Assembly: GCA_963699165.1 (NCBI GenBank)
Contig: OY969413.1
Coordinates: forward strand, 276,562-340,561
DNA length: 64,000 bases
DNA from: Candidatus Kaiserbacteria bacterium
Lineage (GTDB): Bacteria; Patescibacteriota; Minisyncoccia; Phycocordibacterales; Phycocordibacteraceae
Direction: 5' to 3'
Shown here: one piece after another, positions 45,090 to 62,691 of the stretch
How the letters are laid out: the number at the start of each line of letters is the position of its first letter
How positions within the stretch are numbered: the first letter of the stretch is position 1
The notes under the pieces: model-generated
Seen by the model: only the letters and a program-made list of their open reading frames with translations
Databases searched by the model: none
Told to the model about the DNA's origin: nothing
Made by a program: the position numbers and the translations under genes

Positions 45090-45497
45090 TTATGCCTTTG
45101 GCTGCAACTGCGCGCAATGCGAGCATCGCTTTGCGTCAAGTGGAATCTCGCTCAGACATTCCGGGCATTTCTTTGTCGTCGGATCGGCGGGGGCTTCCTT
45201 GCGCGACTTTGCAATGAGAAAGTTCATCGGCTTAACCACGAAGAAAAACACCGCCGTTCCGATAAGCACGAAAGAAACAACGGCGTTTATGAAGCTTCCG
45301 TACATAAACTTGCTGCCGTTAATCGTAAACACCAAGCTGCTGAAATCCGGCTTGCCGAAAATGGCCGCGACGAGCGGCGTGATAAAGTCCGCGACGAGTC
45401 CGGTGACAACCGCGCCAAACGCGCCGCCGATTACGACGCCGACCGCCAAATCAACGACATTGCCGCGAAGCAGGAACTGTTTAAATTCTTGTAGCAT
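45090..45497 (-). CDS. mscL: Large-conductance mechanosensitive channel MscL.
   Basis: MLQEFKQFLLRGNVVDLAVGVVIGGAFGAVVTGLVADFITPL, the canonical MscL N-terminus. 135 aa. Confidence 0.95.
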   Translation of the reverse strand: MLQEFKQFLLRGNVVDLAVGVVIGGAFGAVVTGLVADFITPLVAAIFGKPDFSSLVFTINGSKFMYGSFINAVVSFVLIGTAVFFFVVKPMNFLIAKSRKEAPADPTTKKCPECLSEIPLDAKRCSHCAQLQPKA

Positions 45498-45549: not shown

Positions 45550-46593
45550 TCAACTTGCTGTACGCGTCCAGTACTTTTGGCAGTCCCCGACGGTTAATGT
45601 ACACACAATATACCGCAAGGGGGACACCATGCCGAGCGACTGGTGCGGGCGTTTGGTGTTGTACCAGATCAGCCAGTCGACAAGCTTCAGATTGAAGGAA
45701 TGAATATCGTCCCGCAGCAGGCCCCGATTCAGCATGATGAAGTCCTCGGAGACGGTGCGATTGAATCGTTCGACGTGGGCATTCATCTTGGGAGTGCGGG
45801 GGCGGGTGTGAAAGTGCGTGAGCCCGAGTTCGGCACAGGCATCCTCGAAGTGTTTGGCGAACTCGCTCCCGTTGTCGGTCTGCAACTCGTCGATATCGAA
45901 GGGGCAAACCTCGATGACTCGGCGAAGGAAGTCGTCCGCGCTTCTCGACGAGTGGTTCGTATACGCGCCCGCAAAGGCGAACTTCCGCTCCACATCCACT
46001 GCCGTGAGGACGTACCGCTTCACGCCGTCGATGAAGCGGACGACGGTATCGAGCTCCATGCCGCGCTTGCCGGTGCGGCGAAGCTTGGTACGGCGTTTCT
46101 GCGGTGTTTCCGTGTGATTGCCCGTACGTGCGTGGAACGAGAGCCGGCTCTGCTGCGGGAGCAGACCGCGGTTCTTCAAATCCAGAATGACCCGCCCAAC
46201 GTATGACTCCGACACGGAGTGCCCTTCTTCGCGCAGGAGAACGGCAAGCTTTGCTTTCCCAAGCCGGGGATGCGCCTGTCGTTCGCGGATGATGAAATCC
46301 TCGACCTCGGGCAGAACAGTCCTCCTTCGACGCGCCTTCGGCGCAGTGCTCTTCGGGTCAAGTGCATCAATGCGGCCCTCGTGGGCTTTGAGTTCCTCCT
46401 TCCAGCGATACAAGGTGCGCTCCGAGGTGCCAAAGGCGTCGTATGCGGCCTCCGTCCCGTGCATGTCCCAGAATCCCAATATCTTCACCCGTCTGTCGAC
46501 TTCCTTTGGTTTCCGCATATGCCGCAATCGTATCGTCCTTTCCCACATGCTCAACCAGCCCTTCGTACCCCTGAAATTGCTTCTGATGCGCAT
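45550..46593 (-). CDS. DDE transposase/integrase (rve core; IS481-like), 347 aa.
   Basis: Same protein as the 14754..15797 product except for H2R and the last residues, which read into the flank. Confidence 0.8.
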   Translation of the reverse strand: MRIRSNFRGTKGWLSMWERTIRLRHMRKPKEVDRRVKILGFWDMHGTEAAYDAFGTSERTLYRWKEELKAHEGRIDALDPKSTAPKARRRRTVLPEVEDFIIRERQAHPRLGKAKLAVLLREEGHSVSESYVGRVILDLKNRGLLPQQSRLSFHARTGNHTETPQKRRTKLRRTGKRGMELDTVVRFIDGVKRYVLTAVDVERKFAFAGAYTNHSSRSADDFLRRVIEVCPFDIDELQTDNGSEFAKHFEDACAELGLTHFHTRPRTPKMNAHVERFNRTVSEDFIMLNRGLLRDDIHSFNLKLVDWLIWYNTKRPHQSLGMVSPLRYIVCTLTVGDCQKYWTRTAS

Positions 46594-46638
46594 ATATCCT
46601 CGGTTATGAGGACTGCCAAATGTATCTGAACTTATGCA
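45559..46638. mobile_element. IS481-like (rve-type) insertion sequence, copy 2 (1080 bp), with a 5-bp target duplication CTTGC.
   Basis: Near-identical to 14763..15842 (one SNP, T to C near the transposase start, which gives His to Arg). Confidence 0.8.
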
Positions 46639-46677
46639 CTTGCCATTTTTTTGTTTGACGGCTTGTACCGCCAGTTA

Positions 46678-47124
46678 TCAAACAGATAAATCTTTCAAAA
46701 TTCTTTCTAATCTTTCACTTAAAACTATGGCCTGAGGCGCATGAAAAACAGTTGTCCCTTGCTTTTCATTTACTGTTGTAACAGTACCCATCGGTACGAC
46801 TCTAAGAACGCGAGGATTCCCTCCATATGAGCTAGCTGCGCGTTTAGCATAAATTTCCGCAGACTTAGGTTCTTTCGTAAAAAAAACTTTGTCTAAATTT
46901 TTCTTTCTCCCTCTTTCGCTAATTATTTGTGTTACATCCGGCGGTAAAACTTCTCTGGAAAGATTTGGGGAGGACGTTCCATGATACAAAACACCATACT
47001 CTCTATAGTTATCAAGCAATTTTAGTATATCTTCATAAGTTAAAACGATGTTTTCGATGACCTCTTCTGAATTATGATCTATTTCAGGAGTGGCTACCGT
47101 TCGATTTATTGAATATTTTTCCAT
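46678..47124 (-). CDS. Hypothetical protein with an ADP-ribosyltransferase-fold-like YHGT motif (Tpt1/KptA C-lobe- or diphtheria-toxin-like), in an AT-rich islet.
   Basis: GVLYHGTSSPNLSREV, followed by KVFFTKEPKSAEIYAKRAASSYGGNPRVLRVV, which resembles the HGT loop and downstream strands of Tpt1/KptA and of H-Y-E class ARTs. It lacks the Tpt1 N-terminal R-H-R region. This is pattern recognition only. Confidence 0.4.
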   Translation of the reverse strand: MEKYSINRTVATPEIDHNSEEVIENIVLTYEDILKLLDNYREYGVLYHGTSSPNLSREVLPPDVTQIISERGRKKNLDKVFFTKEPKSAEIYAKRAASSYGGNPRVLRVVPMGTVTTVNEKQGTTVFHAPQAIVLSERLERILKDLSV

Positions 47125-47189
47125 AAATATTTAGTATATCAGGCGGCACTGCGATTGTACCGAGATTAGGACTGTTGATCACTTGCAGG

Positions 47190-47438
47190 TTAGCAGGTAC
47201 CCAGATTGCTGAAAAGCGCTTTGTAGTCGGTGGCGGGATAAAGAGGTGTATTGCCCGTTGAAATATCATCGACCGGAACCCACTCGGCGTCAAATTCATA
47301 TGTTTCCTCAACTACGTGAATCGGGTTCTGCGAGTAAAGCTCAGTGCGGGCCAGATCACCGACATAGAGGAAATCGACTTCGTCGCCCTTTTTGCCTTCC
47401 CATACGAAAAGGTTCTCGATGGTTTCCACTAATTGCAA
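47190..47438 (-). CDS. Small hypothetical protein (82 aa), co-directional with and immediately upstream of the ART-fold-like gene.
   Basis: ORF with an acidic composition. No motif. Confidence 0.4.
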   Translation of the reverse strand: MQLVETIENLFVWEGKKGDEVDFLYVGDLARTELYSQNPIHVVEETYEFDAEWVPVDDISTGNTPLYPATDYKALFSNLGTC

Positions 47439-47837
47439 ATTTTCTATTTCGCTCGAAAGTTCTTCCTGGATTTTTCTGCGAACACCCGTCTTTATGGAAA
47501 AGACACATGGCTCTCAAACGAATTGTATTTTCGTGTGACGTACCAGCATTTTAGCAATGATTTCTGATTTGTGGGATTGCAATAGGAATTGCGGCATTCC
47601 CCCAAGGGGACTGCGATTTCCTATGCCTCGATTATTCGGCATGAAAATCGGGAGCCCTTGCAGGGTTGCAATTTGTCACCACATCGGAATGTGGACAAAT
47701 TGGGAACCTACTAAAATATACGAATCAGCAGATTCGCCTACCTGGGTCGCCGATTACGGCTCGTTAATTTTGTGGGGCCGCAGATTACTGCGGCATCCTA
47801 CAAAATTATAGTTGCGGAGTACCGCTCCTTAATTTTG

Positions 47838-47908
47838 TGGACCTACGGGGAGTCGAACCCCGACCTCGTCCATGCCATGGACGCGTTCTACCGCTGAACT
47901 ATAGGCCC
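47838..47908 (-). tRNA. tRNA-Ala (anticodon GGC), 71 nt.
   Basis: Cloverleaf GGGCCTA/TA/GTTC-AGCGGTA-GAAC/G/CGTCC-ATGGCAT-GGACG/AGGT/CGGGG-TTCGACT-CCCCG/TAGGTCC/A. The G3:U70 pair (Ala identity element) is present. No encoded CCA. Confidence 0.85.
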
Positions 47909-48047
47909 GAGGCGAAGGAGGGATGGTTTGTTGTTTACGCACCACCCTCCTTATCCGAGCAATTGGCGCCGATGTTTTCAGCGCCAATTTTGTCGCTCGG
48001 ATTGGCATATCATACCAAACGCCCCTTGTTCGCCCAAATGGGCGAAG

Positions 48048-49496
48048 TTACGGAAGCACCGACTTGAAGGCCGCAAGCGATGCCGAGTCGGAATTGATGA
48101 GCCAATTCGTTCCCGTATCGTTTTCATCGAAGTACACCCAGCCCTTCACATTGGTGTATGACTTCACGTGCGTGCCGAGACCTTCGGTTATCCATGCCGC
48201 TTTCTGCGGGCCGGCAACCGAGCCCATCGAAGTTAGGTAGATGGGTTTGCCGTAGGTTTGCATTTGCGCCACGGGTCCGTCGAAGATTTGGTCGAACGAT
48301 TCCCATGGATTCCCGAAGTTAAATCCGTCGATGCCGACGTAATCGACATACGCGCTGCCCGGATAATAATCCGAAAACTGATTGCCCGAAACGTTCGGAA
48401 CCGAATCGGAATTCATAACCCAGGCGAACTTCACGTTGGTCGCATTCGCCGCAACGAAGATGTTGTGGATGTGCTGCCACGCGGCGATGAGTTTTGCGGG
48501 AGAATTGTTTCCGACGGTGCCGTCCCAATCATCCCAGTTTCCGTTCATTTCATGGAAGATGGAGAGAATAACCGGACACCCGCCGCTTGCCGCGCTTTGC
48601 GCGAACGAGCGAATGTACGAATCGTACGTTCCGGCGTTAATCGAATCGACGCTGTACCCGTAATTTTCCCAATACACAAGCAAGGTTTGATTGTTCGTGC
48701 ACGTCGAGGAAAAGTTCGTCGGGAATGAGTCCGGCCAACCGACGAAGGTTGCTACGATGCTCGGCAACTTTCCGAGCGTCGAACTAAGCGTCGACATGGT
48801 CATCGAGCCGGTGCCTTCGAATACGCCCCACTGCAATGCGCTTGGCGCGGGAGTCGGAGCTGATACAGGCGGCGCCGGTGTCGGTGTCGGAGCGGGAGGC
48901 GGCAGAGAAACAACCGGTACTGATACTGGCGTCGATGTTGCCGTTACGGGCGCCGGATTGCCAGTAGTGGACGTGGCAGTCGTTGTTCCGCTTCCGCGAT
49001 GCCTCGAACTTTTACCGGTTGATACCTTGGCATTTGCCGCTAGAGTGGTTGAAGTAACCGTATTAGTAGTAAGAGAACTCGGCGAGATTGCGGTCGATGA
49101 TGCGGCCGCAACCGGTGCACCCGCGACGGTCGCAGTCGTGCCGCTTGACGCGACAGGCGGCGTTGACGACGCGGCGAGTTGATTAAGAAGAGCGCGCGTC
49201 TTCGGACCAACGGTTCCGACCGGGTCGAGACCGTATTTTGTTTGAAGAGCGATGACTGCGCTGCGAGTAAGCGAACCGAAATATCCAGTAATAGGTCCGG
49301 CGTACAGATTCTGCGCCGCAAGCGTTGTCTGCAAGGCGGATACGGAATTATTGTTTGCACCGGGCGAGAGCGTTTTTGTAAATGAAGCGAATGCTTCCGC
49401 GGGAACCGCACCGAACACGAACGCGAGAGTTATGATAATGGACGATATGAATATGGCTATGTTTTTTAATTTATTATTCATGAAACCTATCATCAT
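48048..49496 (-). CDS. Secreted peptidoglycan-binding-domain protein with a glycoside hydrolase (GH26/clan GH-A-like) C-terminal domain.
   Basis: Signal peptide, then a PG_binding_1-like motif (LQTTLAAQNLYAGPITGYFGSLTRSAVIALQTKYGLDP) and a long T/S/P-rich linker. The catalytic region has FHEMNGNW (an acid/base glutamate after HE, as in GH26 mannanase-like enzymes). Confidence 0.6.
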   Translation of the reverse strand: MMIGFMNNKLKNIAIFISSIIITLAFVFGAVPAEAFASFTKTLSPGANNNSVSALQTTLAAQNLYAGPITGYFGSLTRSAVIALQTKYGLDPVGTVGPKTRALLNQLAASSTPPVASSGTTATVAGAPVAAASSTAISPSSLTTNTVTSTTLAANAKVSTGKSSRHRGSGTTTATSTTGNPAPVTATSTPVSVPVVSLPPPAPTPTPAPPVSAPTPAPSALQWGVFEGTGSMTMSTLSSTLGKLPSIVATFVGWPDSFPTNFSSTCTNNQTLLVYWENYGYSVDSINAGTYDSYIRSFAQSAASGGCPVILSIFHEMNGNWDDWDGTVGNNSPAKLIAAWQHIHNIFVAANATNVKFAWVMNSDSVPNVSGNQFSDYYPGSAYVDYVGIDGFNFGNPWESFDQIFDGPVAQMQTYGKPIYLTSMGSVAGPQKAAWITEGLGTHVKSYTNVKGWVYFDENDTGTNWLINSDSASLAAFKSVLP

Positions 49497-49537
49497 TGCA
49501 TATTCATCTACAGACGCGCAAGCAAGACCTGTGGATA

Positions 49538-52500
49538 TCAGTTGGCGACAATGCCGACATCATCGAGCGTAAGCGAGCCGATACCCGTTATATAGTGGAA
49601 TACTTGTGCGGAAACGACTCCTGCGGGCGCGGTAAACGTAACCGAAGATATTCCCCATGCAGGCGTCGACGCGGGGAAAATCGTATCGTCGGCAAACGTC
49701 GCGTTCCCCGAAGCGTCCAGGAATTCAACTTCCACATGCGATGAGACATCGGAGACGTATGAATCGGAATACGTGTACGCCGCACCGGCGCTTACCGGAA
49801 CCTGATCCATAACCCATTTAGAGTCGCCGTCGGTGTAGGAAGTGATCTGCACTTTCGCGGCCGTGCCGTCCGTGTGTCCGGCGACCGGATAACTGAAGAC
49901 CGCCGTATTAGTTCCCCATCCGCCTTGCGACCAGTTTTGCGGAAGAGTCGGGTCGGTGCTGTTCGCAATGGCGAATGTAGGGTTTGCAACGAGGTTTGTT
50001 GTTGACGGCGGCGGCGGAGAAGACGACCCGATTGAATCGGTCAAACTCGCATCGTCAATGGTGAGCGTTCCGATGCCCGCGATAAGGTGGAAGACGCGCA
50101 CGGACGCCGTGCCTGCGGGCGCAGTAAATGTAACCGTTCCCGTTCCCCAACTTGATGCGGATGCAGGCAAAGCGGTGAATCCCGCATACGAATACACGCC
50201 GGTGGTGCTCAGATATTCGACGGCAAGCTGTGACGCGATATTTGATTCGTAAGAATCCGAATAGGTGTATGTATGGCCGGGAGTAACGGCGACCTTATCG
50301 AATACCCACTTTGCGTCGCCGCTCGCGTAGGAAGTTATCTGCACTTTTGCGGCCGTGCCGTCCGTGTGTCCGGCGACCGGATAACTGAAGACCGCCGTAT
50401 TAGTTCCCCATCCGCCTTGCGACCAGTTTTGCGGAATACTCGAATTCGATGCGCTTGCGATCGCAAACGTCGGATTGAGAATGAGGTTCGGACCACTTGT
50501 CGCAACCGAAGAAGATACCGTGACTGTGTCGGTGGCAACGTTTGAATCAAACAGTCCGTTATTGGCTTTGAATGAGAAGGTATCGATGCCGGTGAATCCC
50601 GCAGCCGGCGTATATGTCTCCACCGAAGATGTTCCGGTGAGCGTGCCGTGCGAAGGCGGAGTCACAATCGAGTACGTGAGCGCATCGTTATTCGGATCCG
50701 CTGCCGATAGCATGACTTGCACGGCGGTATTTTGCGTGGTCGTCGCGGCGGAACCGCTCGCAGTCGGCGGATAATTCACTTTGAGGTCGTTGACCGTTAT
50801 GACGCAGTTCGCCGTCACGCCCTGCAATTGCGAGCCAGCGCAATTGGTGGATGTCGCATAGGTATAGTTGCTCGGCACTGATTGCAGAGCGACTGAGTAT
50901 TGCTGAAGCGGCTGAATGCTAACAACCGTCGTTGACGATGTTCCCTGGAACGAACTCGGCGACGCGCTCGCGCCGGTGACATTCACCGTGAAGTCGGCGG
51001 CCGTCGAAGTTGCGCCGTGCGTATTATTTACCACGACCGACACATCGAGTTTCGGCGCGCCCATGAGCGCGGCGCCCTGCGCCATCGTGAGCACCGGCAC
51101 GTTATTTGCGGTCAAATAATTCACGATGCCTTGCAGCGTTTGCGGCGTTGCGCCATAAGGCTGATTGGACAGATCCGTCAAAATCGGATGGAAGACGAGT
51201 ATGAGCCACTGCTTATTCGCTTTCGCCTGGTCTATCCAACTTTGAATTTGAGCTAGCGTGGTATCGGAATCGACCGACTGCGATAGAAGCGCATAGATGT
51301 CGGTGTTGCGTCCGTTAAAACCCGGGAGCACGGTGCGGGACGATATGTATCCCGCTTGCTGCGCTATCTGTTCGCTTGCGCTGTTGTATGCGCCATAGGG
51401 ATACACGAACGTCAGCGCCGGAGTCACGCCGTAACTTAGCAAGTCCTGCCGCCCGCCGGCAATCTGCGTCGTCTGATCCGCATCGGAAAGCGTCGTGAGG
51501 TCCGGGTGGATTTGTGTGTGTCCGCCGATTTCCTGCCCTTCCGCCTGCATCTGCAATATTTCGGCCGGCGTCATATAGTCGAGATATGCGCCGAACGAGA
51601 TATTGTCGACATCGAGATATCCGGCGCCGGTCAGCTGATGCAAAACGGTAATTGTTTTGATTGATGGCGGCACGTAAAAATTAAATGTGGACGGAATTGC
51701 AGACCATGCGCCGTTCGTCGAGGGCAATGTGAGCGCCGTAACTTTGCTTGGAACCATAGTGCCGGCCGAGTTAATGTATTCAGGTGTCCCGCTTGCGTCC
51801 GTCATTTGGATGATAACGTCGGAGGCCGCGCTGCTTCGATACGAATCGGCGTACGAATAGTTTTCGTCGCTGAAAACCGTAATCGGATTGAAATACCATG
51901 CGGCATTGCTGCCTGCCACCGTCGATGAGACCTCGACTGCCTTGCCGCTTTGTCCCGCAACCGGATACGTAAACTTGGCGTTGGTGCTTCCGGAAGTTAG
52001 CCATCCGAGCGGCTCGGTTGAACTTGCGGGGTTCGGCGTTTCAAGATTCGGATTGACTACCGCCATGCCCGAAAGATGCGAGATTATATAGAACGAACCG
52101 TTCATATGCGCGGCGCTCAGAATCGGATAGGCATTTTGATATTGGCTCAACAGCCCGTCATCGAATGAAAGCGTGACGAATCCCCGGTCGAATGAAATCG
52201 GCTGCGGAACCTCGGTCAAGCTCGCATTGTCGATTGAAAGCGAGCCGATCGAACTTATCGTGTGATATACCGTCACGGAAACGACGCCGGCCGGAACGGT
52301 AAAGTTGACCGCCGATTGCTCCCACGTGGTCGTCGCCGGAGATGCTGCAACGGGTGTAAAATCGGCAAACGTCACGCTATTGTCGGTATTCGTGTACGCC
52401 ACGACGAGCTGGGTCGGGACATTCGAAAGATATACGTCATTGTAGAGATAGCTGTGGCCGGGAATGACCGTGACATTGTCGAACACCCACTTCGCGTCGC

Positions 52501-53842
52501 CATCCGCGTATGCTTTCATGCTGATTGTGCCAACCATGCCGCTCGGACTTATTTCATTATTTGTCGTACTTGCCGCGACGTAACTAAACTCGGGCGTGTT
52601 CGTGCCGTACGACGTCGGTGTCCAATGGAGCGGTTGATTTGCGATTGAAGGATCCGGCGTTTCAAGCCCGGGATTTTGAATAAGGTTCGGCGACGCCTGT
52701 CCGAGCGAAATCGGTTCGAGGTCGCTGAGCGTAATGGTGCACGTCGCCGAATCGCCGCCCGGAAGCTGTCCGGTGCAGTCGGGAGAATACGAAACATCGT
52801 AGTACAAACCCGGTTCGGTCGTAATTTGATATGCGGTATTCGCCGCAACCGCGACGTTTGTTCCCGAAGCGGCGCCGACAAAAAACGCAGGCGTCGAACT
52901 TGCGCCGTTTACCGTAACGTTAAAATCCGCGGGCGCATTCGTGCCGCCGTGCGTATTCACGACAGACGTAATGACTTTGACCGTCGCAGTCGAAACGACT
53001 GACGGGAAGACCGTTATCGAATATAGATTGGTAGCCGAAATAGCGCCGTTCGTGACCGACACGGCAAATGTGCCGGTGGATGTTGCCGTCGACGTGCCGG
53101 TGATAAATGCCGTCGCGCCCGTGGATGTCGAGAGCGCGAATCCGCTCGGCAACGAACCGGAACTGACGCTCCAACTGAACGGACCGGACGCCGTCGTCGA
53201 CGCCGTCAGCGTCTGCGAATATGGGACGTTCACTGCGGCATTCTGCAATACCGTCGGCGCGATGGAGATGGTCGGACCGGGCGTGCTATCGACGATACTC
53301 GCGTTGTCAATCGTGAGCGTTCCGACGCTCAAGATAGAATGGTAGACGCGAACGGACACGATGTTCGCGGGAACGGCAAAGGAAACGGTCGATGTCGCCC
53401 ACGCCGAAGCGCTTGCCGGAACAGTGGTGAAATTGCCATATGTGATGGTGCTGCTGGCGTCGGTGTATTCGACGACAAGCTGCGTCGACACGCCCGACAT
53501 ATACGCATCGGTATAGGAATAGGAGTGGCCGGCGGATACCGCAACGGGCGACATCAGCCACTTTGCGTCGCCGCTCGTGTACGCGCTCATCGTAATTTGA
53601 GCCGCCTTGCTGTTCCCGACGCCAGACGCCGGATACGTGAACGCTGCGGCATTCGTGCCATACCCGGCCGTTGTCCATCCCTGCGGAATGTTCGGATTGA
53701 CGGTATCGGGCGTTTCAAAATTTCCGTTTGCAATCAGATTTGCGGAATTTGCGTGCGCAAACAGGGCCGGAAGTAGTGAGAGAGCAAGCACGAAAAAAAT
53801 TCGGAGGGTGCGGACCTTCAGCGATTCGGTGGTGGATGACAT
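49538..53842 (-). CDS. Giant secreted multidomain protein (1434 aa). It has about five carbohydrate-binding-module-like repeats (CBM4/9-like, beginning GNFE.P and ending ...LTIDNASI), Ig-like/cadherin-like domains and a central polysaccharide deacetylase (NodB) domain.
   Basis: Signal peptide. Repeated ~150-aa units (IANGNFETPD..., IQNPGLETPD..., VVNPNLETPN..., ILNPTFAIAS..., LVANPTFAIAN...). NodB motifs FVTLSFDDGLLSQYQNAYPIL and GGHTQIHPDL. A cadherin-like segment DALTYSIVTPPSHGTLTGTSSVETYTPAAGFTGIDTFSF. Confidence 0.7.
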   Translation of the reverse strand: MSSTTESLKVRTLRIFFVLALSLLPALFAHANSANLIANGNFETPDTVNPNIPQGWTTAGYGTNAAAFTYPASGVGNSKAAQITMSAYTSGDAKWLMSPVAVSAGHSYSYTDAYMSGVSTQLVVEYTDASSTITYGNFTTVPASASAWATSTVSFAVPANIVSVRVYHSILSVGTLTIDNASIVDSTPGPTISIAPTVLQNAAVNVPYSQTLTASTTASGPFSWSVSSGSLPSGFALSTSTGATAFITGTSTATSTGTFAVSVTNGAISATNLYSITVFPSVVSTATVKVITSVVNTHGGTNAPADFNVTVNGASSTPAFFVGAASGTNVAVAANTAYQITTEPGLYYDVSYSPDCTGQLPGGDSATCTITLSDLEPISLGQASPNLIQNPGLETPDPSIANQPLHWTPTSYGTNTPEFSYVAASTTNNEISPSGMVGTISMKAYADGDAKWVFDNVTVIPGHSYLYNDVYLSNVPTQLVVAYTNTDNSVTFADFTPVAASPATTTWEQSAVNFTVPAGVVSVTVYHTISSIGSLSIDNASLTEVPQPISFDRGFVTLSFDDGLLSQYQNAYPILSAAHMNGSFYIISHLSGMAVVNPNLETPNPASSTEPLGWLTSGSTNAKFTYPVAGQSGKAVEVSSTVAGSNAAWYFNPITVFSDENYSYADSYRSSAASDVIIQMTDASGTPEYINSAGTMVPSKVTALTLPSTNGAWSAIPSTFNFYVPPSIKTITVLHQLTGAGYLDVDNISFGAYLDYMTPAEILQMQAEGQEIGGHTQIHPDLTTLSDADQTTQIAGGRQDLLSYGVTPALTFVYPYGAYNSASEQIAQQAGYISSRTVLPGFNGRNTDIYALLSQSVDSDTTLAQIQSWIDQAKANKQWLILVFHPILTDLSNQPYGATPQTLQGIVNYLTANNVPVLTMAQGAALMGAPKLDVSVVVNNTHGATSTAADFTVNVTGASASPSSFQGTSSTTVVSIQPLQQYSVALQSVPSNYTYATSTNCAGSQLQGVTANCVITVNDLKVNYPPTASGSAATTTQNTAVQVMLSAADPNNDALTYSIVTPPSHGTLTGTSSVETYTPAAGFTGIDTFSFKANNGLFDSNVATDTVTVSSSVATSGPNLILNPTFAIASASNSSIPQNWSQGGWGTNTAVFSYPVAGHTDGTAAKVQITSYASGDAKWVFDKVAVTPGHTYTYSDSYESNIASQLAVEYLSTTGVYSYAGFTALPASASSWGTGTVTFTAPAGTASVRVFHLIAGIGTLTIDDASLTDSIGSSSPPPPSTTNLVANPTFAIANSTDPTLPQNWSQGGWGTNTAVFSYPVAGHTDGTAAKVQITSYTDGDSKWVMDQVPVSAGAAYTYSDSYVSDVSSHVEVEFLDASGNATFADDTIFPASTPAWGISSVTFTAPAGVVSAQVFHYITGIGSLTLDDVGIVAN

Positions 53843-54052
53843 ACGCGAGATGACTAGATGCTAATAATTTCTTGAAACGCCGTGGCGGGCGGTTCGATTT
53901 TTACATCTGCCGCCGTTTCTTTACCGCATTTTCAGTAATCTTCATGACGTCGAGTGCCGCACATGATTACAAGCCGCAAACGTGCGCGTCCGCGGTGCTT
54001 CAATCGCTGAAATATTTTGCAGATTCGAGCGACATCATGAGACACGCGGCGT

Positions 54053-55138
54053 ATGAAAAATGCAACTCAATTTTCCGAAATATACCCGAAGAAAATTCAT
54101 GCGAATGACATTTCCATCTCGCTGCTGATTCCGTGTTACAACGAAGAAAAAGGAATCGAAGCGACCGTGCAATCCTGCCTGCGGCAGACGCGTCCGTTCG
54201 ACCAACTCGTCATCGTGAACGACTGCTCGAAAGACCGGACGCTTGAAATATTACAGAGGTACAGCGACCGTATTACGGTCATTACAACGCCGAAAAATTC
54301 CGGCAACAAAAGCAGCGCGCAGGAATATGGACTACGCTTCGTGACGGGCGACGTTATGGTTACCACCGACGGCGACACGCTGCTTGATGCGCGCTTCGTC
54401 GAAGAAATTGAAAAGGATTTCCGAGACCCCTCGGTAACGGCAGTCGCGGGATACGTCAAAAGCATTCCGTACAACTGGCTCACTTTGTGCCGCGCGTTCT
54501 ATTACATCGTCGGCCAAAATCTGCACAAAATCGCGCAAAATTATCTTAACTATATTTTCGTCATGCCGGGCGCCGCAAGCGCTTTCAAGACCGATACATT
54601 TCGGAAAGTGTGTACGTTTGACCACGACACCATCACCGAAGACCTCGATTTCACATACAAACTGCATCGGCACAATTTGCGCATTGTCTACAATCAAAAT
54701 GCAATTTCGTACACGCAAGATCCTTCGACGTTGCACGACTATATGTATCAAATGCGGCGCTGGTACAGCGGCGGCTGGCAAAATCTCGGCAAGCATATTT
54801 CGGTAGTCCGCCATCCGATTCGCGCGATGGAATTGTCGCTGATTTACATCGAGGGGCTCGTATTTTCGACGCTGCTGCTCGTTACGCCGTTTGTCGACTT
54901 GTATTTGGCGCTCGTGATTCTCGCAGGGTATTTGTTCATTACCGCAATCTTCGCCGTGTGGGCGGCGTGGGTCGGCCGCCGCCCCGCAATACTGCTCGTC
55001 CTCTTGCCATATCTTCTATTACTGTATGTGAATGCGTATTTGTTCATGGAAACTTTCGTGACGGAAGTTATTGTACGTCGTAAGACACTGATTTGGTTTA
55101 AACCGGACCGAGTGGCGACGCCAATGCAACACCTATGA
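54053..55138 (+). CDS. Family 2 glycosyltransferase (processive polysaccharide synthase-like; membrane-anchored C-terminus).
   Basis: LLIPCYNEE, DCSKD, TTDGDTLL (the DxD motif) and QMRRWYSGG (the QxxRW processivity motif), followed by C-terminal TM helices. Confidence 0.8.
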   Translation: MKNATQFSEIYPKKIHANDISISLLIPCYNEEKGIEATVQSCLRQTRPFDQLVIVNDCSKDRTLEILQRYSDRITVITTPKNSGNKSSAQEYGLRFVTGDVMVTTDGDTLLDARFVEEIEKDFRDPSVTAVAGYVKSIPYNWLTLCRAFYYIVGQNLHKIAQNYLNYIFVMPGAASAFKTDTFRKVCTFDHDTITEDLDFTYKLHRHNLRIVYNQNAISYTQDPSTLHDYMYQMRRWYSGGWQNLGKHISVVRHPIRAMELSLIYIEGLVFSTLLLVTPFVDLYLALVILAGYLFITAIFAVWAAWVGRRPAILLVLLPYLLLLYVNAYLFMETFVTEVIVRRKTLIWFKPDRVATPMQHL

Positions 55139-55710
55139 CTAACCCATTCTTCTTCGGCCTTTCGATAATAATTCACATTCTGGTCATCATCTGGAATTCG
55201 GTGCTTGACTTCCTGTTTCCGAACCGCAGCAAGATGCTATTTGCGAAGCAGCGGATACACACGCTTATCGTGAGCGGGCTGCTTATCGGCGGAGTATTTT
55301 CGTTTGTCTCATTCTGCGGCGTCACCATCATGTATGCCGCCGTTATCGACAGCCATTCATCGGTAAATATCGCCGAACGGGTCGTGCCGCGTTTGCTGCA
55401 TCCCTCGCTGCAAAATATAAGCGCGACCGCCGCAGCGTCGAACGCAATCGAGACCAATGAGGCGGAAATCTACGGTATTCTGTTTCTCGCGTTCTTCATA
55501 TTCCTTTTCTCGGCGCTGCACGGCGAGCTGGTATCGTGCTGCGTCGACTGGATTGTGCGCGGATTTCCGTTTCGCGCTCTCTTCGTGAGCTTCGGCATAC
55601 TCGTGCTGTGCGTAGGAACCGCGAGCGCATTCATTTACCTGACTCCCGTAACAAGCGCCGCATCACAGGTTCTCGCGCTATTAAAATACACCGAACCGTT
55701 CCCGCGCTAA
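55135..55710 (+). CDS. Hypothetical integral membrane protein, translationally coupled to the GT2 gene by an ATGA overlap.
   Basis: Several TM helices. Its start overlaps the GT2 stop. Confidence 0.5.
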   Translation: MTNPFFFGLSIIIHILVIIWNSVLDFLFPNRSKMLFAKQRIHTLIVSGLLIGGVFSFVSFCGVTIMYAAVIDSHSSVNIAERVVPRLLHPSLQNISATAAASNAIETNEAEIYGILFLAFFIFLFSALHGELVSCCVDWIVRGFPFRALFVSFGILVLCVGTASAFIYLTPVTSAASQVLALLKYTEPFPR

Positions 55711-55712
55711 CG

Positions 55713-56126
55713 CTACTGCCCTTTCTTTAAATTTTCGACGTCGGCAAGAACTTTGCGCAAGTCGGTCATCAGTTCCTCAAGCATCGCCGTCTGCGGTTTT
55801 TCGACGTCCTCCTCCTCGGCCATATCTTCGATGTCCTCGCTGATTTCTTCCACGTCCTCCTGAATCTCGTCGATGTCCGCCTCGACCTCCTGCAAGCTTT
55901 CAGAATGCCGGTTGACTGTCATCTGAATAAAGATTGCCAAATAAATGGCTTCGAGCGAAAGAAGCGTAGTGAGCACAAGAAGCATGATGTCCCATCCGAC
56001 GATGTGAAAAATTGAAAGCGCAAAAAAACAAAGGAAGACGGTGGTATGCAGCAAGAGCGACGGCACGGAGCCGATTGCGGTCGTGAGGCGTTCTATCGGA
56101 TGCAGCGGCGCGCCGTTTTTCGTCAT
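55713..56126 (-). CDS. DUF1003-like membrane protein (two TM helices plus an acidic coiled-coil tail).
   Basis: LLLHTTVFLCFFALSIFHIVGWDIMLLVLTTLLSLEAIYLAIFIQMTVNRH followed by an Asp/Glu-rich tail. The layout is typical of DUF1003. Confidence 0.5.
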   Translation of the reverse strand: MTKNGAPLHPIERLTTAIGSVPSLLLHTTVFLCFFALSIFHIVGWDIMLLVLTTLLSLEAIYLAIFIQMTVNRHSESLQEVEADIDEIQEDVEEISEDIEDMAEEEDVEKPQTAMLEELMTDLRKVLADVENLKKGQ

Positions 56127-56215
56127 TGTCGAATTGTCGCATTATTCGATGCACAAACGCAAGTCAAAGCGAAAGGCCGCGCGCGCGGCCTTTCGCGGAT
56201 ACTGCACTATGTTCG

Positions 56216-57565
56216 TCACGGCAACTGCGGTGCAGGTAGATTGAGCGATGCGCAATAGAGATTATTTATCTCACGTTGCGTCGTTTTGTATACCAGCCCG
56301 GTCGGCGTATGGTCGGTTGGAAGTCCGAACGGCACCCACGGCTTGAGAACGTCGAAGTTATATTTCAACTGGAAATCTTTGACTGCTTTTTGCGTTTGCG
56401 GCCCGAATACGCCCGTAACGGGAAGATTGCCTCCCAGGTTTGAATTAAGAAATGTTTGCAGCTTCATCACCTCGTCGGAATCGTTATTTCTATTGCTGCC
56501 CAAAAACGTTTTGAGAAGAGGCCCGCAGCCCGGAACATTCACCGCTTCGGTCGAAGTGCCGAGCACTTGGCCGGTAATAATCGGTATGCTTATCGCGCCG
56601 TTTGACACAACAACCTGTGCGGGAGGAGCAGCCGGAGGCGCCGGCGGAGTACCTATTGAGCCGCCGCCTCGGGTATCGCCCGAACCCGTGTCTGTCGTGC
56701 TTGCCGATTGCGTTGTCGAAGCAGCGCCTCCCGAATCGGACGGCGCGGGCGGCGGAGCAATCAATTGATTCAGCACTATGAGCGTTTGATTCGGATTGGC
56801 CGGCGTAAGCTGGATGTATCCGTCCGAATTTAGATTGCGGCTCGCATCGTTTGAAGAATCCGAATCGAACAATTCCGGACTATACGCTGAAAAGTCGGCT
56901 GCGGAGCGAGCAAGCCCCGTCGCTTCGTCGTCATACTTGGGCGTTGCAAATCCGGTTGTGGTGCCAATTACTTCCTGTCCGTAATAGTAGCCGCCCGAGT
57001 CCGCAAAAAGACCGCTCTGTGTGACGCATTGGGCATCGTCGCCTGCGCTTGCATCAAAAATTTTATTTGAAAGCGATAGCGGCGTCGTAAACAAATACGG
57101 ACTGAATTCGCCCGATATCGGCCCAAGCGAAGTATCGGGATCCGGCGCCAGACCGGGAATGGAAAACGTAATGCCTGCCGGAACAGAGCTTGTCGCTACA
57201 GTCCCATCTGCGTTCAATATGATATTGCAAACGGTTATGGAGCCGTACGCCGGAGGAACGTATGCGCCGCCGCCTCCGCCGCCCCAATCGTCATGTCCGC
57301 CACCGCCGTCATGATTGCCATCGTGATGGTCCGAGCCATGCCACGAATCGCTGTCTGAATCCGAATCACCGTCGTGCTGACCGCTATCTTCATCAGATTG
57401 AATGTCGCCGCCATCGCCGTGTCGCCCGCCGCTGTAATTGCCTTGACCGGCGCTGTCCTGCGCAAACACTATATGCGTCGGTATTACAAACAGAAGGAGC
57501 GCGAACGCCTGCACGACAATGGCGCCTGTAATCGTCGAACGAAGAAAACCTTTTGAATTAGTCAT
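56216..57565 (-). CDS. Secreted protein with a His/Asp/Gly-rich low-complexity region and a C-terminal peptidoglycan-binding (PG_binding_1-like) domain.
   Basis: Signal peptide (start taken at MTNSKGFLRSTITGAIVVQAFALLLFVIPTHIVFA). An HDGDSDSDSDSWHGSDHHDGNHDGGGGHDDWGGGGGG tract. C-terminal DEVMKLQTFLNSNLGGNLPVTGVFGPQTQKAVKDFQLKYNF. Confidence 0.6.
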   Translation of the reverse strand: MTNSKGFLRSTITGAIVVQAFALLLFVIPTHIVFAQDSAGQGNYSGGRHGDGGDIQSDEDSGQHDGDSDSDSDSWHGSDHHDGNHDGGGGHDDWGGGGGGAYVPPAYGSITVCNIILNADGTVATSSVPAGITFSIPGLAPDPDTSLGPISGEFSPYLFTTPLSLSNKIFDASAGDDAQCVTQSGLFADSGGYYYGQEVIGTTTGFATPKYDDEATGLARSAADFSAYSPELFDSDSSNDASRNLNSDGYIQLTPANPNQTLIVLNQLIAPPPAPSDSGGAASTTQSASTTDTGSGDTRGGGSIGTPPAPPAAPPAQVVVSNGAISIPIITGQVLGTSTEAVNVPGCGPLLKTFLGSNRNNDSDEVMKLQTFLNSNLGGNLPVTGVFGPQTQKAVKDFQLKYNFDVLKPWVPFGLPTDHTPTGLVYKTTQREINNLYCASLNLPAPQLP

Positions 57566-57785
57566 GGAATAAAAGGTAGGTAATAAGGTTAAGCCCTTAT
57601 CCCTGCAGCCGTATTTCATGAGAAATGCTTACATGCGATGCTTTAAAACATACGAATAGGTAGATTCGCCTACTGGGTTATTCAGCAGGATCACCTACTT
57701 GGTTCGCTCGCAAATTTCCGCGACTCCTAAAGAACTGCGTTTTGTAAGCCACTCGCTTCGCTCGTGGACAAATTCGTTAAAACCT

Positions 57786-57811
57786 AAAAATCCGGTGCAT
57801 ACCGGATTTTT
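57786..57811. terminator. Intrinsic terminator hairpin AAAAATCCGGT/gcat/ACCGGATTTTT (bidirectional form) just 3' of tRNA-Ala(CGC).
   Basis: Perfect 11-bp stem including A/T runs on both sides. It sits 10 nt from the tRNA 3' end on the minus strand. Confidence 0.7.
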
Positions 57812-57821
57812 TAGCGTTTTG

Positions 57822-57894
57822 TGGACCATAGCGGAGTCGAACCGCTGACCTCGTCAATGCGAATGACGCGCTCTACCAGCTGAGCTAATGGCCC
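57822..57894 (-). tRNA. tRNA-Ala (anticodon CGC), 73 nt.
   Basis: GGGCCAT/TA/GCTC-AGCTGGTA-GAGC/G/CGTCA-TTCGCAT-TGACG/AGGTC/AGCGG-TTCGACT-CCGCT/ATGGTCC/A, with G3:U70. Confidence 0.9.
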
Positions 57895-57926
57895 TTCATG
57901 ACAACGGCACGCGCTAGTATCCTATC

Positions 57927-58553
57927 TTATTTCTTTGAATGCTTCCAGCGTCTGTCCTTCTCTTTCCGGTTGACGAACCAGGAATCGGCTTCGTCGAACC
58001 ACCATGCATCGGGATGCATTTTGAGAAGTATTTTTAGGACTTTCTTCCCGGCATCGGTTTTAATCCGCTTCGCCGCGATTTTCGCCCACACATTGGCCTT
58101 CGTATTTCCTTTCACCTCTTCGGCCCGAAGCGACGCGACCCATTCAAGCTGGTCCGCGTCCTTCACGAGGCGCGCTTCAAGCGTTTTCCGCTCCTGCTCT
58201 TCGAGATACAACGCCTCGAAATCTTTTCCGAACGGTACAGCATTGGCGATATCAGCCAATGCATTCCGTTCCCCAAGTCGGCCGTAGCGTTGATGCGCGT
58301 AATTGAGATCCGAGGTTCGACCTTCGGCAATATCATGTGTAAGCGCCATGAGCACCGTTTTATTTTTATCCGCCTCCGGAGTCAGGTACGCAAGCGCATA
58401 CGCTATATACGCCGTGCGAAAGAGATGTTCCGCCACGGACTGGTGCCCGCTTCCGAGGAGCCAGAAACCCGACCGCGGAGTATTCTGATGAGCACCCATT
58501 TCATAAACGAAACGGCCGATAGATTCAATTTCATGAGACGCCGACTTTTTCAT
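57927..58553 (-). CDS. HD-domain hydrolase, YfbR-like 5'-deoxynucleotidase family.
   Basis: SVAEHLFRTAYIAYAL...MALTHDIAEGRTSDL (the H...HD...D pattern of YfbR-type HD phosphohydrolases). 208 aa. Confidence 0.7.
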   Translation of the reverse strand: MKKSASHEIESIGRFVYEMGAHQNTPRSGFWLLGSGHQSVAEHLFRTAYIAYALAYLTPEADKNKTVLMALTHDIAEGRTSDLNYAHQRYGRLGERNALADIANAVPFGKDFEALYLEEQERKTLEARLVKDADQLEWVASLRAEEVKGNTKANVWAKIAAKRIKTDAGKKVLKILLKMHPDAWWFDEADSWFVNRKEKDRRWKHSKK

Positions 58554-58635
58554 GGAAATGATTGTATCAGATCTCGCGCATCGCTCAATCCGCAGAAAGC
58601 CGAACTTCGGCCCTCGACAGGGAGATGAAACGTCT

Positions 58636-58982
58636 TCCGGCCTTCGATTCCGGACAAACGCTTCGCGTTTTCACCCCTCACTTCGTTCGGGCCGCCGGGA
58701 ATCGGTCACGGATAATTCTCTCGCCGACGCTCGAGAATTTCCGTGACCACGCCTCGCGGTTCGGCTTGCTAGCCGAACATCGCTCCGGCATTCGATTCCG
58801 GACAAACGCTTCGCGTTTTCACCCCTCACTACGTTCGGGCCGCCGGGAATCGGTCACGGATAATTCTCTCGCCGACGCTCGAGAATTTCCGTGACCACGC
58901 CTCGCGGTTCGGCTTGCTAGCCGAACATCGCTCCGGCATTCGATTCCGGACAAACGCTTCGCGTTTTCACCCCTCACTACGT
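58636..58982. repeat. Tandem repeat with a 148-bp period, about 2.3 units, abutting the 3' end of tRNA-Pro(GGG). Each full unit begins with a 19-20-nt copy of the tRNA-Pro 3' end (TTCGGGCCGCCGGGAATCG) and contains internal hairpins.
   Basis: Units at 58686-58833 and 58834-58981 plus a partial unit at ~58636-58685. The unit contains the inverted repeat GGTCACGGATAATTCTC...GAGAATTTCCGTGACC and the hairpin GTTCGGCTtgctAGCCGAAC. A few SNPs distinguish the units. Confidence 0.8.
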
Positions 58983-59053
58983 TCGGGCCGCCGGGAATCG
59001 AACCCGGTCTACATCCACCCCATGGACGCGTACTACCGGCATACTCCGGCCCG
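58983..59053 (-). tRNA. tRNA-Pro (anticodon GGG), 71 nt.
   Basis: CGGGCCG/GA/GTAT-GCCGGTA-GTAC/G/CGTCC-ATGGGGT-GGATG/TAGA/CCGGG-TTCGATT-CCCGG/CGGCCCG/A. It has the C1:G72 pair and A73 characteristic of bacterial tRNA-Pro. Confidence 0.85.
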
Positions 59054-59070
59054 CTCCGAGATGTTCCCTG

Positions 59071-59141
59071 TCGGGCCGCCGAGAATTGAACTCGGTCCTT
59101 ACGAACCCGAATCGCATGTACTACCGGCATACTCCGGCCCG
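59071..59141 (-). tRNA. tRNA-Pro (anticodon CGG), 71 nt.
   Basis: Same acceptor and D arms as the GGG isoacceptor. Anticodon arm TGCGA-TTCGGGT-TCGTA and T arm CCGAG-TTCAATT-CTCGG. C1:G72 and A73 are present. Confidence 0.85.
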
Positions 59142-59189
59142 ACATGGAACACCTCTATTTGGCGCGCATGCTTCTAAAAAATCGCGCGG

Positions 59190-59263
59190 TGGGCGGTACA
59201 GGAATCGAACCTGTGACCTTACGCGTGTGAAGCGTACGCTCTAACCGACTGAGCTAACCGCCC
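59190..59263 (-). tRNA. tRNA-Val (anticodon CAC), 74 nt.
   Basis: GGGCGGT/TA/GCTC-AGTCGGTTA-GAGC/G/TACGC-TTCACAC-GCGTA/AGGTC/ACAGG-TTCGATT-CCTGT/ACCGCCC/A. Confidence 0.9.
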
Positions 59264-59282
59264 ATACATTTAACAGGGTGCA

Positions 59283-59313
59283 CGTACGCTCTAACCAACT
59301 GAGCTAACCGCCC
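59283..59313 (-). pseudogene. Truncated duplicate of the tRNA-Val 5' half (positions 1-31, one SNP in the D-loop), 20 nt upstream of the intact gene.
   Basis: GGGCGGTTAGCTCAGTTGGTTAGAGCGTACG matches the tRNA-Val 5' half and then diverges. Confidence 0.7.
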
Positions 59314-59357
59314 GACTACAAACGGCGCGAACACGTTCCACCATACCAAATTTTGAA

Positions 59358-60293
59358 TCAGATTCCTAGACCGCTAAGCGCATGCTCGACTTCGGAAATC
59401 GGAAGTGAAAAACCGATATTTTCCGAGCCCTGCACCATCGCGACGTTTACGCCGATCGCTTCGCCTGAAAGATTTACGAGCGGGCCGCCGGAATTCCCCG
59501 GATTAATTGCCGCATCGGTTTGGATTACGCCGTTCAAGGTCTCGCTCCCGCCTTGGTCATTGGAAGCCGTAATGCTTCTATTCAAGCCGGAAATGACGCC
59601 GACCGATACCGAGTTATTGTACTGGCCGAGCGCATTCCCCACGGCAAAAACGGATTGTGCAAGACGCAACGAAGACGAGTCGCCAAGCGACACGGTCGGA
59701 TAGCCGCTTCCGGTAATTTTTACAACGGCCAAATCCTCCGTGCTTGAGCGCCACACAACCGTGCCTGTTTTCTTTGCCCCGCTTGCGAGCAGTACGGTGT
59801 AGGTCGCGTTTGCGTCAGGCACGACGTGCTTATTGGTCACAATATATCCGTTGCTGCGCACGATAAACCCCGTGCCTGCGGAAACTTGCTGGCTCGTGGT
59901 GCCGACTTGCTGATATACGGGTACTTGTATGCCGAATCCTTGAAACATCGGGTCATTGCCGAACGGATTTTCATACGTCACCTGAAGCTGCGGCACGACC
60001 TGGCTTTCGACGATGGAAACGACTGCCGGCGTGACTTTGGAGACGGCGTCTTCAAGCGAGGGCGTTTCCGATTTCTGAACGACCTGATCCCGGCGCGCAA
60101 GTTCCGCCGCATTCACAGCCGTGCTCGAGGCCGTTTGAATGACCGCGTTCGAAAGCTCGCTAATCGATGACTGCAACAATGCGACCGAGTTTGAAAGACG
60201 CTGCACTTGCTGATTCTCGTACATAAGGCCGCCGGCAACGGCAAGAGCCGCAATGAGCGCGGCGATTGAGAAAATGGTTGCTGAATTTTTCAT
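59358..60293 (-). CDS. Trypsin-like serine protease, S1C (HtrA/DegP-like) family without a PDZ domain. N-terminal membrane anchor.
   Basis: Catalytic triad context TNKHVV (His), DLAVVKI (Asp) and GNSGGPLVN (Ser). N-terminal TM (IFSIAALIAALAVAGGL). The start is taken at MKNSATIF. Confidence 0.85.
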   Translation of the reverse strand: MKNSATIFSIAALIAALAVAGGLMYENQQVQRLSNSVALLQSSISELSNAVIQTASSTAVNAAELARRDQVVQKSETPSLEDAVSKVTPAVVSIVESQVVPQLQVTYENPFGNDPMFQGFGIQVPVYQQVGTTSQQVSAGTGFIVRSNGYIVTNKHVVPDANATYTVLLASGAKKTGTVVWRSSTEDLAVVKITGSGYPTVSLGDSSSLRLAQSVFAVGNALGQYNNSVSVGVISGLNRSITASNDQGGSETLNGVIQTDAAINPGNSGGPLVNLSGEAIGVNVAMVQGSENIGFSLPISEVEHALSGLGI

Positions 60294-62690: not shown

Positions 62691-62691
62691 G

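Follow-up and report, generated by a model that had tools for sequence, protein, structure and literature searches.

An Arr-Like Predicted ADP-Ribosyltransferase Gene of a Phage Protein Family in a Foreign Islet beside tRNA-Ala(GGC) of a Candidatus Kaiserbacteria Genome

Introduction

T4-like phages encode the ADP-ribosyltransferases (ARTs) Alt, ModA and ModB; DarT and ParT, both small ARTs, are the toxins of toxin–antitoxin (TA) systems. Arr, an ART that modifies rifampin, is among the smallest ART folds. Its catalytic residue D84 lies in the EDDPN segment, and its rifampin-binding sites 1 and 2 comprise residues 87-95 and 126-133, respectively (PMC8492726). In the surveys of the Aravind laboratory, Arr-family ARTs are mentioned only for phages of Microbacterium, Gordonia and Sinorhizobium. 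Here we describe a 148-aa protein with a predicted Arr-like domain, encoded in an AT-rich islet located beside the tRNA-Ala(GGC) gene of a Candidatus Kaiserbacteria bacterium. The DNA analysed, called the window below, is a stretch of 64,000 nt (contig OY969413.1, positions 276,562 to 340,561), and coordinates without a locus name refer to it. The protein was compared with Arr and other ARTs, with its phage relatives and with the corresponding loci of related bacteria.

Results

The 148-aa Protein and the Phage Family phrog_2110

The islet features lie on the minus strand and are read from high to low coordinates. The gene and the conserved part of its product were placed as follows:

46678-47124, minus strand: intact gene of the 148-aa protein (open reading frame, ORF), 66 nt from the remnant of a Nudix gene
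46717-46992, minus strand: core of the ART-like domain (phrog_2110, Arr-like), from the PHROG match, conservation and hhalign

The ORF is a genuine gene, on which purifying selection acts. It was intact and identical across three independent assemblies or runs, and the protein had a counterpart of 100% identity at NCBI, WAN50_02810, from a metagenome-assembled genome (MAG) of the Minisyncoccia. Pairwise ratios of nonsynonymous to synonymous substitution rates (dN/dS), calculated against five homologues from the candidate phyla radiation (CPR), ranged from 0.10 to 0.24. The protein consists of an N-terminal extension peculiar to the CPR subfamily (residues 1-44), a predicted Arr-like mini-ART domain (approximately residues 45-136) with the motif LYHGTS at residues 46-51, and a C-terminal helix.

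Residues 40-134 matched positions 7-102 of the 105 positions of the PHROG profile phrog_2110, annotated as "unknown function", with an E-value of 6e-29. A profile search of 1.84 billion protein representatives returned 231 cluster-representative members of the family, with a conserved unit of approximately 95 residues corresponding to residues 45-136 of the window protein. Three arrangements of the domain were seen: it stood alone (about 95-120 aa), formed the C-terminal part of proteins of 200-1000 aa, or was embedded in proteins of 1000-3900 aa. With tblastn, homologues were present in 610 phage records, mostly of T4-like phages infecting Escherichia, Klebsiella, Acinetobacter and Aeromonas, and in no plasmid. 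IMG/VR contained 57 loci, mostly in genomes of 160-235 kb. Some UniRef entries of the Mosigvirus cluster are named "ADP-ribosyl transferase", the GenBank name being hypothetical protein.

The proteins of the T4-like phages (approximately 105 aa; for example moskry gp59 and ORF170c of Aeromonas phage 31) share the domain at 42-52% identity, and the conserved core was alike even at the DNA level, with 70-88% identity to the CPR gene. They differ from the CPR protein, which has in addition the extension of about 44 residues, containing a helix, and the C-terminal helix; the CPR copy is also chromosomal, in a cellular genome. The 148-aa gene is a new, CPR-adapted member of this catalogued phage protein family. 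In Aeromonas phage 31 the gene adjoins an annotated repeat within a variable region. In the Mosigvirus Escherichia phage moskry the Arr-like gene (locus L015, 2977-3489) was located directly upstream of dmd, which encodes the antitoxin against RnlA/LsoA, and the stop and start codons of the two genes were adjacent.

In the giant proteins, the fusion partners of the domain were ART-PolyVal, LPD23, ddrB-ParB, Toprim, GNAT, portal, minor-tail, CHAP and 2H/Acb1 domains. Injected polyvalent proteins have been described as having such a multi-effector architecture (Iyer et al. 2017, PMC5512222). The phrog_2110 domain resembles ART-PolyVal (PF18760, Tox-ART-HYD2 clade; PMC5512222) in being an ART-like module within giant multi-effector proteins. 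The two are nevertheless separate ART families: they stand side by side in three members (P0022, P0023 and P0026), and the H-Y-D active site of ART-PolyVal is not clearly present in the phrog_2110 family.

The close homologues of the window protein (n = 15) were 44-84% identical to it and had the N-terminal extension in common with it, and all those with a named source were labelled as Patescibacteria. No homologue of the CPR subfamily above 62% identity was found in IMG/VR or in the JGI metagenomes. At three of five homologous loci (L008-L010) the ART gene was 12-15 points lower in GC content than its own contig; at the other two (L001 and L005) it had the GC content of the surrounding contig. 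The neighbouring genes differed among the approximately ten CPR contexts examined and encoded glycolytic, GH130, XRE-type helix-turn-helix (HTH), Csx3-like and unknown proteins. One CPR lineage had a NADAR gene two genes upstream of the ART gene. No partner gene was conserved beside the homologues in these contexts.

Kinship to Arr

A profile made of 59 domain sequences was compared with all the sequences of the PDB and retrieved Arr-ms (2hw2, 9iaf; E-value 0.0017), Arr-2 (E-value 0.063) and nothing else notable. Alignment of profiles with hhalign gave the Arr-2 family a probability of 96.4% and an E-value of 1.4e-9 over 75 columns. With the Pfam model Arr-ms (PF12120), matches were obtained for 9 of the 16 close homologues and for 32 of the 54 multidomain members (best E-value 1.8e-9), and at least three multidomain members were above its gathering score (P0034, P0043 and P0032, with 31.5, 29.4 and 27.5 bits, respectively). 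In the alignment with Arr-ms, H48 of the window protein corresponded to H19, F81 to Y49, and E70 and R73 to E40 and R43. These residues were invariant or nearly so over 164 domains, together with G49, T50, T83, A89, Y92, A93, G101 and G102. The segment Y47-H48-G49-T50 is the H-G-T NAD-binding motif, of which H and G were present in 155 of 155 domains. By these data the domain is remotely homologous to Arr, the rifampin-modifying ART, and Arr-like rather than Tpt1-like. The preliminary description had pointed to an ART-fold-like protein on the basis of the YHGT motif. The domain does appear to belong to the ART superfamily, with YHGT as its NAD-site motif; the resemblance to Tpt1/KptA suggested at the same time has to be replaced by the closer resemblance to Arr.

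Like Arr (PDB 2HW2, 9IBA), the phrog_2110 domain would be among the smallest ART folds. The two have in common a first strand Y/F-H-G-T, a loop E-x-G-R, a following strand that bears an aromatic residue, a helix A-x-x-[YW]-[AG] and, after it, a strand V-x-P-x-G. The family differs from Arr in having Phe in place of Tyr49, an additional basic insert K-K-N after G-R and no clear counterpart of Asp84. It also lacks the C-terminal segment of about 35 residues which binds rifampin: the domain ends approximately 88 residues after the histidine, compared with approximately 124 in Arr, and the region of site 2 is missing. Lytic phages, polyvalent proteins and CPR bacteria are the carriers of the family, and not antibiotic-resistance contexts. 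On the NCBIfam model NF033144 (rifampin_ARR) the best bridging member scored 26.7 bits, against a cut-off of 130. The equivalog score and the rifampin sites 1 and 2, which together define a functional Arr, were lacking in the window protein.

Two AlphaFold2 (AF2) models of the protein were compared with known structures. For the first one (pLDDT 76.8), Foldseek placed Arr-2 (9iba) at the top of the PDB matches, with an E-value of 4.9e-3 and a probability of 0.99. Among the viral models of BFVD, T4-like phage proteins came first (TM-score 0.78, root-mean-square deviation 2.7), followed by a phage protein annotated as Arr; ART-PolyVal, Tpt1-like and PARP proteins were also returned. A search of the PDB with the single protein gave only a chance hit to saporin.

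Several observations weigh against reading the window protein as an Arr-like ART. Its own score on Pfam Arr-ms was 16.2 bits (E-value 0.012), below the gathering score of 25 bits, and it matched no NCBIfam model, the rifampin_ARR equivalog included. The members from T4-like phages had no Pfam match when taken alone. At the position of Tyr49 of Arr, Phe was present in 157 of 163 domains (96%) and Tyr in six, so that only the aromatic character is kept. All the alignments stopped just before the EDDPN segment, and no acidic residue near the position of D84 was invariant. An Asp or Glu at position 114 or 116 existed in 95 of 123 domains (77%) and in all the close relatives aligned there (P0012 being ambiguous, and P0014 and P0016 not covering the region). 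In the window protein both positions are Thr, with an E120, and this copy could be impaired by the lack of the acid; since 28 of the 123 members also have no acid at these positions, that residue is not essential family-wide. The second AF2 model, built from a deeper alignment (pLDDT 83.9), produced no significant PDB match, and Arr was outside the top 50. The Foldseek comparison proposed in the preliminary description is therefore in agreement with an ART fold for one model and silent for the other, and because it was the better model that lost the Arr match, the structural argument was downgraded. The association with Nudix or NADAR domains, presented below, concerned only a few of the approximately 130 loci surveyed, and no experimental work on the phrog_2110 family was found in the literature. 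Taken together, the prediction of an ART is well supported by the sequence profiles and weakly by the comparison of modelled folds, and the support from solved structures is marginal.

An Islet Inserted between tRNA-Ala(GGC) and mscL

The features surrounding the gene are listed below in the order in which the islet is read:

47837-47908, minus strand: intact tRNA-Ala(GGC), the upstream boundary of the insertion (ARAGORN; Rfam tRNA, 64.1 bits)
47811-47840: repeat copy 1, 30 nt, overlapping the last 4 nt of the tRNA (repeat search)
47746-47775: repeat copy 2, 30 nt, 83% identical to copy 1 (repeat search)
47545-47836: non-coding, strongly structured spacer (about 290 nt) that separates the tRNA from the Nudix remnant and holds both repeat copies (RNA folding)
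47190-47544, minus strand: Nudix hydrolase pseudogene (Pfam NUDIX; tblastn with intact homologues)
46639-46643: right copy of the target-site duplication (TSD) CTTGC, the left copy being at 45554-45558 (sequence)
45559-46638, minus strand: IS481-like insertion sequence (IS) of 1080 bp, 39 nt beyond the end of the 148-aa ORF (second copy in the window, Pfam, NCBIfam)
45090-45497, minus strand: mscL, a core gene and the downstream boundary of the insertion, with 61 nt of flank to the IS (Pfam MscL, E-value 6.8e-38)
beyond mscL, opposite strand: SWIB-domain gene (Pfam)

The GC content was 36.5% in the 148-aa ORF (25.5% at third codon positions) and 46-47% in the Nudix remnant and the spacer, compared with 52.8% in the whole window. 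A low-GC two-gene cassette had been reported here, between the end of the IS at 46638 and tRNA-Ala(GGC). The coordinates were right and the AT-richness was confirmed; the 148-aa gene is intact, and the second member of the cassette is a Nudix pseudogene and not a gene.

To find the corresponding site in relatives, one genome per species was scanned for mscL, and the tRNAs and neighbouring genes were then placed. In a Paceibacterota MAG (L039), tRNA-Ala(GGC), almost identical to that of the window, was located 42 nt from the start codon of mscL, and the SWIB gene followed. In a second relative (L033), where tRNA-Ala(GGC), mscL and SWIB likewise follow one another, the distance between this tRNA and mscL was 13 nt. 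The tRNAs Ala(tgc), Val, Pro, Pro, Ala(cgc) and Ala(ggc) succeed one another in L039 as they do in the window, and L039 keeps mscL and SWIB next in line. As the tRNA directly adjoins mscL in both relatives, the window holds approximately 2.34 kb of extra DNA, made of the islet (approximately 1.25 kb) and the IS (1.08 kb). The islet is accessory foreign DNA inserted between tRNA-Ala(GGC) and mscL. It has the features of a genomic island, being missing from relatives in which the tRNA flank is intact and having a GC content of 36.5-47% compared with 52.8%. The absence from L039 and L033 answers the question, raised in the preliminary description, of whether the islet might be conserved core genome: it is not. 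No integrase gene was present among the ORFs of the window. The order of events is readable, with the arrival of the islet first, then the decay of the gene next to the ART gene, and then the insertion of the IS.

The tRNA cluster as a whole (47908-62764, to be compared with 7800-10000 in L039) appears to be an insertion hotspot. The gap between Ala(cgc) and Ala(ggc) measured 9.9 kb in the window and approximately 1.4 kb in L039, and the gap between Ala(tgc) and Val 3.4 kb and less than 0.1 kb, respectively. In the window the first of these gaps encodes a surface protein of 1434 aa and a peptidoglycan-binding/GH26 protein. The surface-protein gene contains internal repeats (49800-49944 and 50292-50436), about 146 nt long and 92% identical, which were seen as secondary BLAST hits. 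On the other side of the islet, the MscL protein carries a zinc-ribbon-like C-terminal tail (residues ~109-128; Pfam UPF0547/Zn_Ribbon_1), which is absent from canonical MscL.

The Nudix Remnant and the Nudix Links of the Family

The 82-aa ORF located upstream of the ART gene (47190-47438, TTG start) corresponds to the tail of a broken gene, with an in-frame stop codon upstream of it. When extended to the preceding stop, it matched Pfam NUDIX with an E-value of 4.4e-5, over positions 44-119 only of the 134 positions of the profile. Intact Nudix homologues of 147-149 aa were 64-67% identical to the remnant. With tblastn, residues 4-19 of these homologues were found at 47532-47485 in one frame and residues 50-146 at 47492-47202 in another. 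Residues 20-49, or about 30 codons containing the first half of the Nudix box, have been deleted, and the frame is shifted. A complete Nudix fold in a single frame, with an intact box GX5EX7REUXEEXGU, is not encoded. What had been taken for a small acidic partner gene is a Nudix pseudogene. At the locus of one intact homologue of the dead gene (L013, 604-7301) the setting was defence-island-like, with a type I restriction-modification system, an AAA_15 ATPase and ASCH and SHOCT-like genes, and with no ART gene beside.

A proximity to Nudix domains was also seen in members of the family from other sources. In P0018 (310 aa; L158, 2581-3513) the Arr-like domain was inserted in frame in the Nudix-box loop of a protein of a different Nudix subfamily. 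The composition of the P0018 insert matched that of the host gene. In P0023 (1955 aa) and P0025 (1981 aa) the Arr-like domain was directly followed by a C-terminal Nudix domain, and the domain found upstream in the same chain was ART-PolyVal in the former and ddrB-ParB in the latter. A neighbourhood screen for Nudix and NADAR, made on 130 loci with phmmer seeds, revealed nothing beyond the cases already known. The known cases suggest, but do not prove, a functional link of the family to ADP-ribose processing, which fits the ART reading and does not amount to an obligate pair.

The ART homologues adjoin unrelated genes, which leaves no conserved pair of the toxin/antitoxin or toxin/immunity kind. 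The intact, co-oriented and conserved partner that characterises a type II TA system does not exist at the locus, and a PADLOC search with the single protein found no defence-model match, only a chance hit to DitB.

The Repeat and the Structured Spacer

The 12-mer CCACAAAATTAA, the reverse complement of the previously noted TTAATTTTGTGG, was present in exactly two copies in the window, 65 nt apart. With at most one mismatch, 0.29 chance matches were expected in the whole window. The similarity between the two copies extends to the 30 nt listed above. In L039 the tRNA is followed by CCACAAAATTTAA, and copy 1 with its core CCACAAAATTAA therefore represents the ancestral 3' flank of the tRNA. Read on the plus strand, copy 1 is made of the hairpin GGAGTACCGCTCC and then TTAATTTTGT, and both copies have this terminator-like arrangement of a short G+C hairpin followed by TTAATTTTGT. 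The fold of the segment 47700-47840, the 140 nt past the tRNA, had a z-score of -5.9 relative to shuffled controls. Several stable hairpins were visible in this segment, including terminator-like elements facing both directions. In the spacer no known RNA family was recognised, the only Rfam match being the tRNA.

The repeat had been interpreted as the trace of an att-site duplication following integration at the tRNA. It is real, with two copies near the 3' end of the tRNA, and does not bracket the cargo. Both copies sit on the tRNA side, upstream of all the cargo, and hence cannot be the attL and attR sites of the islet; no third copy was found at the distal end of the islet or elsewhere in the window. 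An att duplication of the islet was ruled out on these grounds, the copies being at most 95 nt from the tRNA with an overlap of only 4 nt, and no integrase being encoded. A local duplication of the hairpin-containing tRNA flank explains the data, and a scar of some older integration event is another possible origin of the repeat.

The IS481-Like Element

A second copy of the IS was located at 14763-15842, in the same orientation and with 99.9% identity, which fixes the boundary of the first copy at 46638 exactly. The element has imperfect terminal inverted repeats of approximately 28 nt and target duplications of 5 bp (CTTGC for the islet copy, TATTT for the second copy). The transposase matched Pfam rve, rve_3 and HTH_32, and its best NCBIfam match was IS481, with 184 bits, under the equivalog cut-off of 224 bits. 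The traits of the IS481 family are present: a DDE (rve) transposase, terminal inverted repeats, a short TSD and multiple copies. The IS has been recently active in the host genome, and another assembly breaks at it. Its own target duplication CTTGC implies that it transposed later, and independently, into the junction between islet and mscL. A composite transposon with the IS as carrier of the ART gene was ruled out, since a separate 5-bp TSD accompanies each IS copy and the IS does not include the ART gene. The transposase ORF (45550-46593) extends past the end of the element, its last two codons and stop codon being supplied by the flanking target duplication, so that the two copies encode slightly different C-termini.

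Discussion

We propose that the islet is foreign DNA carrying an Arr-like predicted ART from the phage pool, which acts alone and on a substrate other than rifampin. On balance we hold this account to be probable. A foreign AT-rich segment of approximately 1.25 kb has been inserted between tRNA-Ala(GGC) and mscL, and its ART module would have come from the phage or mobile pool. From its conserved residues, the 148-aa protein would bind NAD+ through the strand bearing Y-H-G-T, the loop E70-x-G-R73 and the strand bearing F81, and would transfer ADP-ribose onto a substrate. This substrate is probably not rifampin, because the rifampin-binding C-terminal region of Arr is missing. Rather than a protein, the target is more likely to be a nucleic acid, something nucleotide-like or a different small molecule, since the closest characterised relative, Arr, modifies a hydroxyl group of a small molecule, since an invariant catalytic Glu like that of protein-modifying ARTs is absent, and since the family has a conserved basic loop of its own, G-R-K-K-N. 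In the phage and mobile pool the domain may be a host-manipulating or counter-defence effector, often beside ADP-ribose-processing Nudix domains. In the host genome, where the Nudix neighbour is dead, the ART protein would act alone and not as one half of a TA pair.

It is also possible, with a modest probability, that the protein has no catalytic activity and is either a passenger of a decaying islet or a binder of NAD or ADP-ribose. The decay of the neighbouring gene, the arrival of the IS 39 nt downstream, the two threonines at positions where most of the family and the covered close relatives have an acid, and the want of an invariant equivalent of Asp84 are all in favour of such a pseudo-enzyme. 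The low dN/dS, the conservation of every invariant residue of the NAD site, the identity of the intact ORF in independent samples and the existence of the 28 members similarly devoid of the acid speak against it. The preliminary description had suggested a toxin/immunity or toxin/antitoxin pair, in which the ART would be a growth-arresting toxin neutralised by the small upstream protein. Small ARTs are indeed frequently TA toxins, as are DarT and ParT, ParT was a weak structural match of the first AF2 model (rank 34), an XRE-type HTH gene is located 8 nt upstream of the ART gene at one homologous locus (L009), and the proximity of ART genes to Nudix and NADAR domains is recurrent. With DarT-DarG and DarT-NADAR the family shares a small ART, probably acting on a non-protein substrate, and this occasional proximity; it differs from them by the absence of a conserved two-gene architecture, of a macrodomain partner and of any sequence match to DarT. 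At this locus the upstream gene is out of frame and has lost half of its Nudix box while the ART gene is intact in several samples. In addition, no partner is shared by the CPR contexts, PADLOC recognised no system, and the phage homologues are alone or within effector polyproteins. We consequently regard a TA or toxin/immunity pair as very unlikely, its supposed partner being dead and none being conserved among the homologues.

Inactivation of rifamycins by ADP-ribosylation, as in a true Arr-type enzyme, would be in line with the fact that the only characterised homologues are Arr enzymes, and Arr genes are commonly mobile and IS-associated (PMC8492726). It appears extremely improbable for a protein that is about 35 residues shorter than Arr and without rifampin-binding site 2 and the EDDPN segment (PMC8492726), in a family that does not reach the cut-off of rifampin_ARR even through its best bridging member. 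Rifamycin resistance would also be of no obvious use to strictly lytic T4-like phages or to injected polyproteins. An RNA 2'-phosphotransferase of the Tpt1/KptA type, active in RNA repair, has an H-G-T-like NAD loop in common with the window protein, and weak structural matches pointed to it (8tfi, TMq 0.39 with the second model; in BFVD, a Tpt1-like protein of a phage at rank 16). We give hardly any credit to this function, as no Tpt1 Pfam match was obtained at E<=1, the protein is a single small domain devoid of the RNA-binding lobe at the N-terminus, its sequence is significantly related to Arr only, and no RNA ligase or repair gene is nearby.

The predicted Arr-like ART acting alone remains the account that we favour, and a bolder form of it can be formulated, to which we attribute only a small chance. 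In this form phrog_2110 would be a functionally new class of Arr-like ARTs, with a non-canonical active centre made of His-Phe and the invariant Glu-x-Gly-Arg loop, no acid on strand 5, a target that is either a nucleic acid or some small molecule of defence or signalling, and a partnership with Nudix domains, and the CPR copy would be a domesticated form of the phage effector. The Nudix partner might then, for example, convert the ADP-ribosyl adduct into a phosphoribosyl adduct.

Taken alone the window gene is unremarkable. It points to a family of very small ART-like domains present in more than 600 sequenced phages, and the carriers of this family include many well-studied T4-like coliphages as well as giant injected effector proteins. 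If the domain is an active ART with a non-protein target, it would constitute a fourth kind of ART in T4-like phages, beside Alt, ModA and ModB, and would join the few ARTs known to act on nucleic acids or small molecules. For the biology of CPR bacteria, the locus provides a clean example of phage-derived cargo in a tRNA-cluster hotspot, whose empty site can be reconstructed from relatives.

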